Below, piece by piece: positions 3,193 through 5,480 of a stretch of DNA of 64,000 bases. The notes beneath the pieces were generated by a model. That model was not told where the DNA came from and ran no database searches. It saw only the letters and a list, made by a program, of their open reading frames with translations. The DNA comes from Candidatus Thorarchaeota archaeon (GTDB lineage Archaea > Asgardarchaeota > Thorarchaeia > Thorarchaeales > Thorarchaeaceae): NCBI GenBank assembly GCA_048884965.1, contig JBHLQH010000001.1, forward strand, positions 224,001-288,000. Reading direction: 5' to 3'. The stretch's first letter is position 1; each line of letters starts with the position of its first letter. The position numbers and the translations under genes are program-made.

Positions 3193-3849
3193 TTACAGCC
3201 TCAGTAGACGGAAGTCACACTTACCATTACCTTCTGCTATGATTTCTGTTCGTTCGAATCTAATCCACTTGGAGATGGCTTCCATCATCAAGTAATCGTA
3301 TTCGCATAGGATAGGTCCCAATTCTGGATGCTCATTTGCCTTGAAGATATCAAAGTAGAAGCACTTCGTGATGTCGAACCCTAGCTCATTATCATTATCT
3401 GCAACATATTCTAGATCGAAGTATTGATTCTCATAGTTGTTTTGATTTCCTGTCTTTATATACTCAACAATGGTCTTCCAAGTATCTTCACTGGATTCCG
3501 CGTGAGCCCTGAAGCTGTCAATCGTTTGCTGTATCATATCCTGATAGATTGCAAGAACATGCTGTTTGAATTCCTCAAATGAAACTTTTTCCTGTTGAAG
3601 TACCTCATATAATGCAAGTACAAATGTAGGATTTACTCCATGACGTTTTGAAACAAAATCTGGCATCAAGTCTGCATTCTTCGAGAATACTCTATAGAAA
3701 GCATCTTCGAATCGATTTGCACAATTGCCAGCTTTCCAAACACCATAGGTTTTGGTCAGGTGAGAATAGGTTAAAGTTTTGAGATATCCTACCATTTGTT
3801 CTATGAACTCAGCTTCTGACATGATTTTCTGGGCTAGTTTTTTCATCAT
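3193..3849 (-). CDS. L-2-amino-thiazoline-4-carboxylate hydrolase-family (ATC hydrolase-like) protein
   Basis: Three-Cys C-terminal pattern: KCFY...LCEYD...RTEIIAEGNGKCDF. Confidence 0.7.
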   Translation of the reverse strand: MMKKLAQKIMSEAEFIEQMVGYLKTLTYSHLTKTYGVWKAGNCANRFEDAFYRVFSKNADLMPDFVSKRHGVNPTFVLALYEVLQQEKVSFEEFKQHVLAIYQDMIQQTIDSFRAHAESSEDTWKTIVEYIKTGNQNNYENQYFDLEYVADNDNELGFDITKCFYFDIFKANEHPELGPILCEYDYLMMEAISKWIRFERTEIIAEGNGKCDFRLLRL

Positions 3850-3910
3850 ATTAACTCATCTTGTAGTAACGTATTGTGACTCCTTTCTGTGACCCTTTTT
3901 TGTGGCTTCG

Positions 3911-3920
3911 GTATATATAC
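3911..3920. promoter_or_regulatory. Palindromic TATA element GTATATATAC
   Basis: About 30 nt upstream of the ATG at 3952, in a divergent intergenic region. Confidence 0.55.
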
Positions 3921-3951
3921 TAAATCTGGTACCATATACTTGTGAAATATC

Positions 3952-4053
3952 ATGGCTCTAGCAACTAACTACCGAACTGATTTCGTAAAGAAGAACAAAC
4001 AGGTCGTTTCGACCAAGGCTGTAGGTTATGCCTATGCAACTGTTGTGAGGTAA
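3952..4053 (+). CDS. Small peptide 1 (33 aa) MALATNYRTDFVKKNKQVVSTKAVGYAYATVVR
   Basis: ATG..TAA just downstream of the TATA element; similar to peptide 2; below the ORF-track size cutoff. Confidence 0.65.
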   Translation: MALATNYRTDFVKKNKQVVSTKAVGYAYATVVR

Positions 4054-4059
4054 TTGGAA

Positions 4060-4149
4060 ATGGCTCTTTCCAAGAACACCTATTCACGAAGCACTACTCG
4101 TCCCAAGATTGTCACTGACGCAATCGCTCATGCTTATCTTAGGAGGTAG
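4060..4149 (+). CDS. Small peptide 2 (29 aa) MALSKNTYSRSTTRPKIVTDAIAHAYLRR
   Basis: GAGGT RBS 8 nt before the ATG. Shares the MAL start and TxA[VI][GA][YH]AY motif with peptide 1. Confidence 0.65.
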   Translation: MALSKNTYSRSTTRPKIVTDAIAHAYLRR

Positions 4150-4154
4150 ACCCA

Positions 4155-5480
4155 CTGACCCTCATTACGGCGGAAGAAGCTGAGGTTAGCAAACCTGGCT
4201 TCTCAACTATTCTTCACCGTCCTGACTATCTTCGCCTTTGGCTGGGACAGGTCGTATCAAATGTCGGCACCGCAATAAGCTCACTTGCTCTTCTGTTCTT
4301 TGCCTATTATCTGACTGGTTCTGCCCTTGCAATGGCTATCCTGTCAATCGCACGTGTCGTTCCTGTAGTCCTTTTCTCCGGATTCATTGGCGTCTATGTT
4401 GACCGATGGGATCGAAAGAAGATAATGATAGGTTCTGATCTTCTCCGGACACTCCTCATTCTCCTTATTCCTCTCTCTATCTATTTCCCCCAGAATCTAC
4501 CAACTATCTATTGGGTCTACATTCTAACATTCCTCTACGCCTCTGCTGATGCGTGGTTCTATCCTGCCAGAAATGCCTCGATACCCAATCTTGTTGAAGG
4601 AAAAGAGCTTGTCACCGCGAACTCGTTGTCACAAATGACTTTCCAAGTTGTTCAATTGACGATCCCTCCCTTGGGTGGTGTACTAATTGCACTTCTTGCC
4701 CCCGATTACTTTCTGGCATTTGCGATAAACTCCATTGCCTTTGTCTTGTCAGCAATTTCACTATCTGGTATCAAGACAAATCTAAGACCCCAAAATAGCA
4801 CATCTGAGAAGGAAGCAATGCTCTCCCAGATCTCTGCAGGTGCAAAGGTTGTGATTCAGAATGCAGTTCTCAGTTTCATCTTTGTATTTGCTATTCTGCT
4901 CGCAGTTTCTTCGGGTATTCTCAATGCTCTACTAGTACCTCATTTACAAGGCTATCTTGGGCTTTCTGAAGGGGAGATTGGTCTTCTTATGAGTCTAGGC
5001 GCAGCTTCTGGAATAGTGATAGCTCTTTATCTTGGAAAGAAATCCGACCTGAAGCATCCTCTTGCCATGGTGAACATTGCTGGGATAATTGCTGGTATTG
5101 CTGTTCTTGGTTTCTCTCTTGCTGAAGGATTCGTAGCTGTTGCCCTTTCGTGGACCATCATTGCATCTGTTGATGTGATCCTTAACATCCCCCTAAGTGT
5201 CATAATGCAAAAGCTTGTAGCAGACAAGATGCGTGGAAGAGTATTCTCATTGTTATCAGTGGCTTTCACATCCTTCCAAGTAATCGGAATGGGCATTGGA
5301 GGCATCTGGGCTGAAACGATTGGATCAACCATTCTCCCACTCTTCATATCTGGACTTGCTTTCTTCTTGGTGTCGATAATAGCTGCTCTCTATCTCAAGC
5401 AGTCCCACCTTGGTAGTCGTCTATCAATTATGCTGAGTTCCTCGACCGAAGATCAGTTGGTAGTTGCTAGAACCGATTAG
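4155..5480 (+). CDS. MFS exporter (DHA3/MefA-like)
   Basis: The frame is open upstream of 4332 to a CTG at 4155 preceded by AGGAGGT. This adds TM1 (YLRLWLGQVVSNVG). Motif A GVYVDRWDRKK and RGRV are present. Confidence 0.9.
   Translation: MTLITAEEAEVSKPGFSTILHRPDYLRLWLGQVVSNVGTAISSLALLFFAYYLTGSALAMAILSIARVVPVVLFSGFIGVYVDRWDRKKIMIGSDLLRTLLILLIPLSIYFPQNLPTIYWVYILTFLYASADAWFYPARNASIPNLVEGKELVTANSLSQMTFQVVQLTIPPLGGVLIALLAPDYFLAFAINSIAFVLSAISLSGIKTNLRPQNSTSEKEAMLSQISAGAKVVIQNAVLSFIFVFAILLAVSSGILNALLVPHLQGYLGLSEGEIGLLMSLGAASGIVIALYLGKKSDLKHPLAMVNIAGIIAGIAVLGFSLAEGFVAVALSWTIIASVDVILNIPLSVIMQKLVADKMRGRVFSLLSVAFTSFQVIGMGIGGIWAETIGSTILPLFISGLAFFLVSIIAALYLKQSHLGSRLSIMLSSSTEDQLVVARTD

Follow-up and report, generated by a model that had tools for sequence, protein, structure and literature searches.

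Organisation of the locus

The subject of this work is a small gene group in a 64,000-nucleotide stretch of DNA from a Candidatus Thorarchaeota archaeon (GenBank assembly GCA_048884965.1, contig JBHLQH010000001.1, positions 224,001 to 288,000 of the forward strand), which was analysed as a whole and is referred to below as the window. Positions 3866-5480 of the window form one predicted transcription unit behind a conserved, putative operator and a TATA promoter, in which two microprotein genes, A and B, are followed by the gene of a transporter of the major facilitator superfamily (MFS), the pump. An earlier note, made from the sequence of the window alone, had presented these genes as a candidate system of peptide export, signalling or attenuation; what it overlooked is that the pair in the window belongs to a lineage-specific family of several copies, each with an operator-type promoter. 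The feature in the window is part of a lineage-specific, previously undescribed regulon of microproteins.

3866..3880, + strand: putative imperfect palindromic operator, GTAACG-tat-TGTGAC in the window, consensus AGTCACA-N3-TGTGACT
3888..3895, + strand: third half-site, TGTGACCC, almost without variation among aligned A-gene upstream regions
3901..3906, + strand: TGTGGC box abutting the TATA box and its transcription factor B recognition element (BRE/TATA), with GTGGCT in nearly all A-gene upstream regions
3912..3920, + strand: archaeal TATA box, TATATATAC, conserved in position and sequence across loci
3940..3951, + strand: short leader, TTGTGAAATATC, directly before the ATG of A, conserved at the nucleotide level across genera
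3952..4053, + strand: microprotein gene A, ATG to TAA, 33 amino acids (aa), net charge +5
4047..4051, + strand: Shine-Dalgarno sequence of B, GAGGT, within the final codons of A, including that of the terminal Arg
4060..4149, + strand: microprotein gene B, ATG to TAG, 29 aa, net charge +5
4141..4147, + strand: Shine-Dalgarno sequence of the MFS gene, AGGAGGT, within the two final Arg codons of B
4155..5480, + strand: DHA3/Mef-like MFS transporter gene, CTG start, about 441 aa, MFS_1/MFS_3

The layout that the earlier note had read from the window, namely a TATA element, a 33-aa open reading frame (ORF), a spacing of 6 nucleotides (nt), a 29-aa ORF, a spacing of 5 nt and a CTG-initiated MFS gene, is present with all coordinates as it had given them. 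Both peptides are basic (isoelectric points of 10.1 for A and 11.0 for B), both have the N-terminus MAL, and both contain the motif T-x-A-[VI]-x-[YH]-A-Y, in agreement with the description given there; the placement of the ribosome-binding site of each following gene in the last Arg codons of the preceding one also holds. That A and B are paralogues is borne out by their common S-T-x-A-[ILV]-x-x-A-Y motif. The pattern of A is M-A-L-A-T-N ... K-K-N-K ... S-T-x-A-[VIL]-x-Y-A-Y-x-T-V-V-R, and that of B is M-A-L-[ASV]-K ... [IV]-[ST]-T-x-A-I-x-x-A-Y-[FL]-R-R, each directly followed by the stop codon. The family profile recognises the two ORFs of the window with E = 9e-16 (A) and E = 6e-12 (B).

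The TATA box begins 40 nt before the start codon of A, with 31 nt between the end of the box and the ATG. The usual archaeal TATA-to-start spacing was used to place the transcription start, and the position of the box implies a 5' untranslated region of about 10 nt for A. In about 30 loci, which represent many genera, the palindrome upstream of the A-type ORF keeps the same distance from the TATA box.

Evidence that A and B are protein-coding genes

Among 32 Thorarchaeota loci with an orthologue of the MFS gene, 31 have ORFs of the A/B family, one to three in number, on the same strand and no more than 600 nt upstream; in the sole exception, the contig ends 78 nt upstream. ORFs of this type were found upstream of none of 29 bacterial MFS homologues. 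The earlier note had staked its proposal on conservation of the ORFs and of the motif upstream of orthologous MFS genes, and such conservation is what these loci display.

For the analysis of codons and of the ratio of nonsynonymous to synonymous rates (dN/dS), we used 33 distinct sequences each of A and of B. For the invariant residues of S-T-x-A-[ILV]-x-x-A-Y, 3-5 synonymous codons are in use; in the motif of B, four codons are used for Ser, four for Thr, four for Ala and three for Ile, and both codons occur for Tyr. Pairwise dN/dS has a median of 0.39 in A and of 0.32 in B. Together, these values answer the check for synonymous-biased conservation that had been proposed, in favour of coding. 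The N-terminal M-A-L-A of B is likewise kept despite varied codons. The first codons of A vary little synonymously (GCT in 30/32 and CTA in 24/32), and A has AGG as its terminal Arg codon in 32/32 sequences. The first Y of the aromatic motif is variable, with H, F, S and N occurring at this position as well. The starts, stops and ribosome-binding sites of A and B are conserved across loci, and AGGAG[GA]T is found at the 3' end of B in most of them. Judged from the conservation upstream of the pump in 31/32 loci, the synonymous variation at invariant residues and the dN/dS values, A and B are real genes, that is, protein-coding paralogues under purifying selection.

Some loci depart from the common arrangement. 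In five loci of one genus (L006, L122, L126, L128 and L133), the motif of A is degenerate, with H-A-F in place of Y-A-Y, and all that is left of B ahead of the intact pump gene is a short, frame-shifted remnant. At L009 / L142 (G006:C325), the A ORF joins the pump gene after about 25 codons, at about residue 125 of the pump; this junction removes B and the N-terminus of the pump, and is due to a deletion or else to faulty assembly.

The pump gene and its CTG start codon

The product of the MFS gene matches the Pfam models MFS_1 (127.9 bits, E = 6e-37) and MFS_3 (74.6 bits, E = 8e-21), both above the cutoff. Its best NCBIfam match is TIGR00900 2A0121, a model of the DHA3 family, at 212.5 bits, which is below the cutoff of 319.6; the models of the Mef macrolide pump and of EntS come next, with scores far below their cutoffs. 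By the ranking of these models, with the top one below its cutoff, the pump appears to be DHA3/Mef-like. A crude hydropathy scan gives about 11 segments, compared to about 12 transmembrane helices in transporters of this type. Orthologues, with 57-71% identity, are confined to genome bins of Thorarchaeota; the next matches, at 22-31% identity, are bacterial.

The MFS frame is open from position 4143, and the first ATG, GTG or TTG in it occurs only at 4332, already within transmembrane helix 1. In all 13 orthologous loci compared, the MFS start codon lies 4-6 nt past the stop codon of B; four of these loci start with ATG, and the other nine have GTG (five), TTG (two) or CTG (two, the window and its nearest relative). 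Because of this constant position, the CTG at 4155 is the positional homologue of ordinary start codons, and initiation at CTG, as the earlier note had it, is supported by the GTG, TTG or ATG that orthologues have at the homologous position. The window thus offers a clear natural example of CTG as an archaeal start codon, backed by positional homology.

Two possible fusions were considered and rejected. A frameshift fusion of B and the pump is contradicted by their frame relation, which differs among orthologues (gaps of 4, 5 and 6 nt). A read-through fusion of A and B would be in frame only in the genus of the window; elsewhere the gaps are 5-8 nt. As a separate observation, B peptides linked to the pump often have [RK]-P-[KRN] immediately before the conserved motif.

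Copies of the family and anatomy of the cassettes

In a profile search of 400 Asgard genomes, A/B was detected in 76 of the 85 that belong to one Thorarchaeota family, and the approximately 315 others had no match; the several hundred matches to microprotein ORFs fall into 77 genomes. The genome of the window (G000) has about 8-9 cassettes, by which we mean the A-B pair with its attached elements. Contig ends of this genome fall within cassettes (C40:1-122/C29:45871-45947; C5:174046-174156/C11:1-160; C40:24089-24168; C62:1). C40 and C29, with an overlap of 77 nt at their ends, belong together. The assembly breaks are located within cassettes because the promoter and A region is near-identical between copies.

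In every cassette, A comes first and B second, and the gene after B varies: it can be the DHA3 pump, a small ORF termed C, a membrane protein gene of ECF-S-like type (ECF, energy-coupling factor) or, past a spacer, an upstream ORF with a transporter of a second MFS family. The A-B, B-C and B-MFS gaps are 3-9 nt across cassettes. The neighbours of cassettes elsewhere are unrelated to one another. In one genus, a second promoter separates A from B and the pump.

Protein C has 30-42 aa and is acidic (net charge -2), with a variable N-terminal part and an end of which only the last 8 residues, [DE]-V-L-A-L-E-A-T, are conserved. Examples, to which at least 12 loci in relatives are to be added, are the following.

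L032:1581-1703 (G000:C81): gene C
G000:C53:15272-15391: gene C
G000:C9:86001-86126: gene C
G000:C62:1-96: gene C

The stop codon of C lies within a conserved hairpin, which is followed by oligo-T. Three of the nine predicted hairpin pairs have compensatory changes, including one that involves the third position of a Leu codon and the second base of the stop codon. Many copies of the family are stand-alone A-B-C mini-operons with a terminator of their own and no transporter. For example, the genome G014 contains five units of about 450 bp (L067, L070, L074, L078 and L082) with 88-97% identity and unrelated flanks, each of which spans exactly the operator, the promoter, A, B, C and the terminator. 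The B protein is identical in all five copies despite synonymous differences. Signs of a mobile element were sought at these sharp-ended units, and neither terminal inverted repeats nor target duplications were seen. In G000, convergent GNAT and methyltransferase genes start 27 and 46 nt past C; these cassettes have no downstream cargo, since the convergent genes come directly after C. Two independent natural fusions of B and C (P0031 and P0048, 72 aa each), in which the stop codon TAG of B is changed to CAG (Gln), suggest that B and C work together as proteins.

The arrangement with the second MFS family is an observation of its own. At L031:376-498 (G000:C11), past an A-B pair, a series of GGTCAC repeats and a spacer with promoter-like repeats of its own, there is a different conserved upstream ORF of 40 codons with the end Y-D-Y-[HN]-W-R-L-[ED]-G. 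It overlaps (ATGA) the start of a second transporter of the MFS_1 family (L031:495-1952). The same type of arrangement is found in L038, L040 and L077.

When 1.84 billion representative proteins, taken from a collection of about 15 billion predicted proteins, were searched exhaustively with the profile, 51 matched. Of these, 49 are clusters of 29-88 aa, most of them below 50 aa; the other two (P0002 and P0003) are long and repetitive, and P0002 was judged a false positive on inspection. The named small clusters carry only the name 'hypothetical protein', and neither A nor B of the window is itself contained in the collection of about 15 billion proteins. Searches of Pfam, NCBIfam, PADLOC, PHROGs, Protein Data Bank (PDB) sequences and the ESM Atlas with A, B, C and the B-C fusion gave no match apart from a PHROG of unknown function, found with B at E = 0.11. 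Searches of the literature on Asgard small ORFs, on archaeal leader peptides and on Thorarchaeota and bactofilin gave no description of the family. As far as these genome and protein collections reach, A/B is an undescribed, multi-copy microprotein family that is limited to one Thorarchaeota family.

The putative operator and the regulon

In the genome of the window, the strict palindrome is confined to the upstream regions of the cassettes, of a bactofilin-domain gene and of an S9 peptidase gene. The operator-like palindrome at G000:C2:49035-49049 (L096), together with a TATA box, precedes the gene of a 420-aa bactofilin-domain protein (C2:49125-50387), and this site is conserved in other genera (L109, L111, L113, L114, L116 and L117). 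A highly conserved gene of the HTH_45 type, which encodes a winged helix-turn-helix (wHTH) protein, adjoins the bactofilin-domain gene (C2:48494-48805) and makes the wHTH protein a candidate regulator of the palindrome. The assignment is by adjacency, because the gene is near-universal, being present in 78 of the 85 genomes of the family, including genomes without A/B; its phyletic pattern, which was tried as additional support, is non-discriminating for the same reason. Operator-like half-sites also occur before the gene of an S9 prolyl-oligopeptidase-family protein (G000:C88:227-241, with the gene at L095:308-2389) and before its counterpart in G005; an orthologue of this peptidase is present in 6 of 61 genomes of the family.

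In the window, the neighbours of the unit are, by their Pfam matches, ATC_hydrolase-like, Trm5_N, EutA and SMC genes. The ATC_hydrolase-like gene is divergent (3193-3849, minus strand), and its start at 3849 is 102 nt from A; as a neighbour, it is common only to the window and its closest relative (L002). The putative operator is situated between this gene and the nearly symmetric TATA box. Given this position and the near-symmetry of the TATA box, one switch could act on both A and the ATC_hydrolase-like gene.

A proposed trans-acting peptide pair with a coupled pump

The A and B peptides of the family have 26-37 aa and a net charge of +5 or +6, with a median GRAVY (grand average of hydropathy) of -0.32 for A and -0.46 for B. 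AlphaFold models A as a single helix at low confidence, with a predicted local distance difference test score (pLDDT) of 67. In the natural B-C fusion, the motif of B is helical with a pLDDT of about 84, and the end of C is a short helix.

The explanation that we prefer, and to which we would give somewhat less than an even chance, is that the unit is an export or self-protection module, in which A and B are a trans-acting pair and the pump is translationally coupled cargo. According to this model, coupled translation would produce A and B in a fixed proportion, and they would act in trans as a pair, each with a disordered basic N-terminal part and the conserved C-terminal helix S-T-x-A-h-x-x-A-Y. 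The pump would take the slot that the acidic protein C holds in stand-alone cassettes, and would be made only with the cassette switched on, at a low fixed ratio to B that is set by the CTG start and by coupling, the latter through either termination-reinitiation or Shine-Dalgarno coupling. It would export the peptide pair or shield the producer, so that the whole might be a leaderless, unmodified peptide-plus-pump module with an antagonistic or signalling role. In pump-less copies, C could serve as a cytoplasmic partner. A dedicated regulator that binds the palindrome, for which the wHTH protein is the candidate, would switch the whole regulon, including the bactofilin-like gene.

That A and B may act in trans as a pair is suggested by the autonomous terminated mini-operons, by the B-C fusions, and by the M-A-L-A of B, which is retained with varied codons. 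Because the B-C fusions are two independent events, they point to joint action of B and C, and the opposite charges of basic A/B (+5, +6) and acidic C (-2) are consistent with a pair or complex. The gaps of 3-9 nt, with the ribosome-binding site inside the upstream gene, fit translational coupling. The pump orthogroup almost never occurs without A/B (31/32), which argues for a functional tie between the pump and the peptides.

Several observations weigh against this explanation. Its weakest point is in genomes such as G014, which has five A-B-C cassettes and no orthologue of the pump of the window; in view of such genomes, the pump is not required for the peptides. One cassette partner resembles ECF S components, which normally take part in import. 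The peptides are hydrophilic, with neither a signal nor a double-glycine leader, unlike membrane-active bacteriocins. The AlphaFold models are isolated helices with no confident packing (predicted template modelling scores of 0.24-0.31). Finally, the wHTH gene, linked to the regulon by adjacency, occurs also in genomes that lack A/B.

Alternative explanations

Three other explanations were compared with the peptide-plus-pump module, and we rank an intracellular effector role above a cis-acting arrest role, and the latter above a role as precursors of ribosomally synthesized and post-translationally modified peptides (RiPPs). A and B, with or without C, could be intracellular effectors that belong to a regulon for stress or morphology and act on a cytoplasmic target, be it nucleic acid, the ribosome, the cytoskeleton or an enzyme; this is possible, if on balance unlikely, and much the same can be said of its corollary, by which the pump would be a regulon member recombined into the third slot that does not handle the peptides. 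The transporter-free core unit A-B-C, found in genomes without the pump of the window, speaks for an effector, as do the hydrophilic, basic and predicted helical nature of the peptides, the bactofilin-like gene under the same operator, and the mixed partners, with two MFS families and an ECF-S-like protein. However, such a role leaves unexplained why the pump orthogroup is so rarely seen apart from A/B, and why the start of the pump is locked at 4-6 nt past the stop of B; this link is tighter and older than would be expected from chance co-regulation.

The same spacing can be turned into an argument for A and B as cis-acting leader or arrest peptides, with a ligand- or drug-triggered pause of the ribosome setting the level of the pump, which we consider quite unlikely. 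The conserved residues of the peptides fall within the 12 codons that precede the stop, the pump begins at a fixed distance from B and 9/13 of its starts are weak, the Shine-Dalgarno sequence is inside the final codons, the pump is related to Mef macrolide pumps, and the separate conserved ORF at L031:376-498 overlaps the start of the second MFS family. The alternative RNA structure is absent, however: the fold of positions 3940-4200 is no better than that of shuffled sequences (z = +0.74), the window has no Rfam match and no tRNA, and at the B-MFS junction of 15 orthologous loci the consensus structure has only -0.8 kcal/mol and leaves the ribosome-binding site of the MFS gene unpaired, with no conserved structure that would mask it. 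The attenuation suggested in the earlier note is therefore not borne out. The second promoter between A and B/pump in one genus, the conservation of the N-terminus of B under varied codons and the natural B-C fusions are further points against arrest. Since many stand-alone A-B-C copies lack a pump, end in a terminator and have convergent genes behind them, a pure cis-acting leader role fails for the family. In the least favoured explanation, A and B, possibly together with C, would be RiPP precursors, matured by an enzyme encoded elsewhere, for example by cross-linking of Y-A-Y, and exported by the pump. Scattered prochlorosin precursors, which are served by one enzyme, are a precedent, and the multi-copy scattered genes with conserved ends and a variable middle, the attached exporter and the S9 peptidase gene with similar operator half-sites in G000 and G005 could be viewed in this light. 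Nevertheless, no maturase recognisable by Pfam adjoins the unit in the window, as the earlier note had stated, or any of the approximately 50 cassettes inspected, and the aromatic motif is not invariant. The S9 peptidase was rejected as the maturase, as its orthologue is present in 6/61 genomes, compared to 76/85 for the peptides. We therefore regard a RiPP precursor role as very improbable.

A more far-reaching version of the peptide-plus-pump explanation would make this the first case of ribosomal-peptide communication or antagonism in Asgard archaea, with unmodified A/B pairs from multi-copy, auto-regulated cassettes, export by the DHA3 pump or neutralisation by C, and feedback of the peptides through a regulator that binds the palindrome and also controls the bactofilin-like gene. 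As a whole, this proposal is unlikely.

Comparison with known systems

Like leaderless multi-peptide bacteriocins (enterocin DD14/L50, aureocin A70), A and B are tandem paralogous genes of cationic peptides. The bacteriocin peptides have approximately 30-44 residues, no leader and no adjacent modifying enzyme, and their operons contain co-transcribed accessory or immunity genes together with a dedicated transporter (PMC6131525, PMC7332713). These systems are bacterial, with amphipathic or hydrophobic membrane-active peptides, ABC transporters and accessory proteins with PH domains (PMC6131525, PMC7332713). A and B have the tandem leaderless cationic genes without a modifying enzyme; they are, however, archaeal, associated with a DHA3 MFS transporter, spread over as many as about 6-9 cassettes in a genome, without sequence similarity to the bacteriocins, and hydrophilic rather than amphipathic or hydrophobic, as the GRAVY values indicate.

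Leader and arrest peptides of resistance, efflux and transport genes (ErmCL, PMC5499644; termination-arrest peptides, PMC11890864) are also encoded by a short ORF directly upstream of such a gene. The likeness extends to the conserved residues by the stop codon and to the downstream start within a few bases, and a short ORF directly upstream on the transcript is present in 31/32 of our loci. SpeFL, TnaC and the mef/msr and tet(L) leaders are further examples of leader peptides. In contrast to these, A and B have neither a switchable RNA structure nor an obligatory cargo gene, they are two paralogous ORFs in series, and their N-termini are conserved. To our knowledge, no leader- or arrest-peptide system of such kind is known in archaea. 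Since the system lacks at least one defining feature of bacteriocins and at least one of leader peptides, we have filed it under neither.

Archaeal termination-reinitiation depends on very short intergenic distances, a type of spacing that is enriched between genes for subunits of heteromeric complexes (PMC10666635); the published coupled pairs mostly overlap by 4 or 1 nt (PMC6728339, PMC10666635). A and B resemble these pairs in the very short gaps and in the Shine-Dalgarno sequence at the 3' end of the upstream gene, and the gaps of 6 and 5 nt in the window, with ribosome-binding sites in the upstream genes, are within the spacing of less than about 20 nt associated with coupling (PMC10666635). 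They differ in the gaps of +3 to +9 nt in place of overlaps, and in upstream partners of only about 30 codons.

Two other kinds of small-peptide systems bear comparison. The pheromones of Firmicutes (SHP/Rgg, ComS/ComR and Phr/Rap) are encoded by small peptide genes under a dedicated operator, with a possible positive feedback loop and an exporter in the regulon. A and B share with them the small unannotated peptide genes, the operator promoter, a possible loop of this kind and the exporter in the regulon, whereas they are longer and hydrophilic, are present in multiple near-identical copies, and have no receptor or regulator gene adjacent. AcrZ-AcrB, MntS-MntP and SgrT-PtsG are examples of transporter modulation by peptides of approximately 30-50 residues, which are mostly encoded by single, uncoupled genes and are often membrane-spanning. 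A and B are likewise microproteins tied to a membrane transporter, but they are paired, adjoin the pump within coupling range, and exist also without any transporter.

Significance

Asgard archaea are mostly known from metagenomes, and gene callers skip ORFs of about 30 codons. In the present case, annotation misses a whole regulon, with its microprotein ORFs, the shared operator, the attached transporters and a cytoskeletal gene. The peptide set is short enough to be synthesised and, with an operator of 15 bp, is open to work in heterologous hosts. If the peptides are signals, toxins or partners of transporters, they would represent a new class of archaeal small-protein biology; and if the proposal of Asgard peptide communication or antagonism is true, peptide signalling and cell shape would be tied together in those prokaryotes that are most closely related to eukaryotes.

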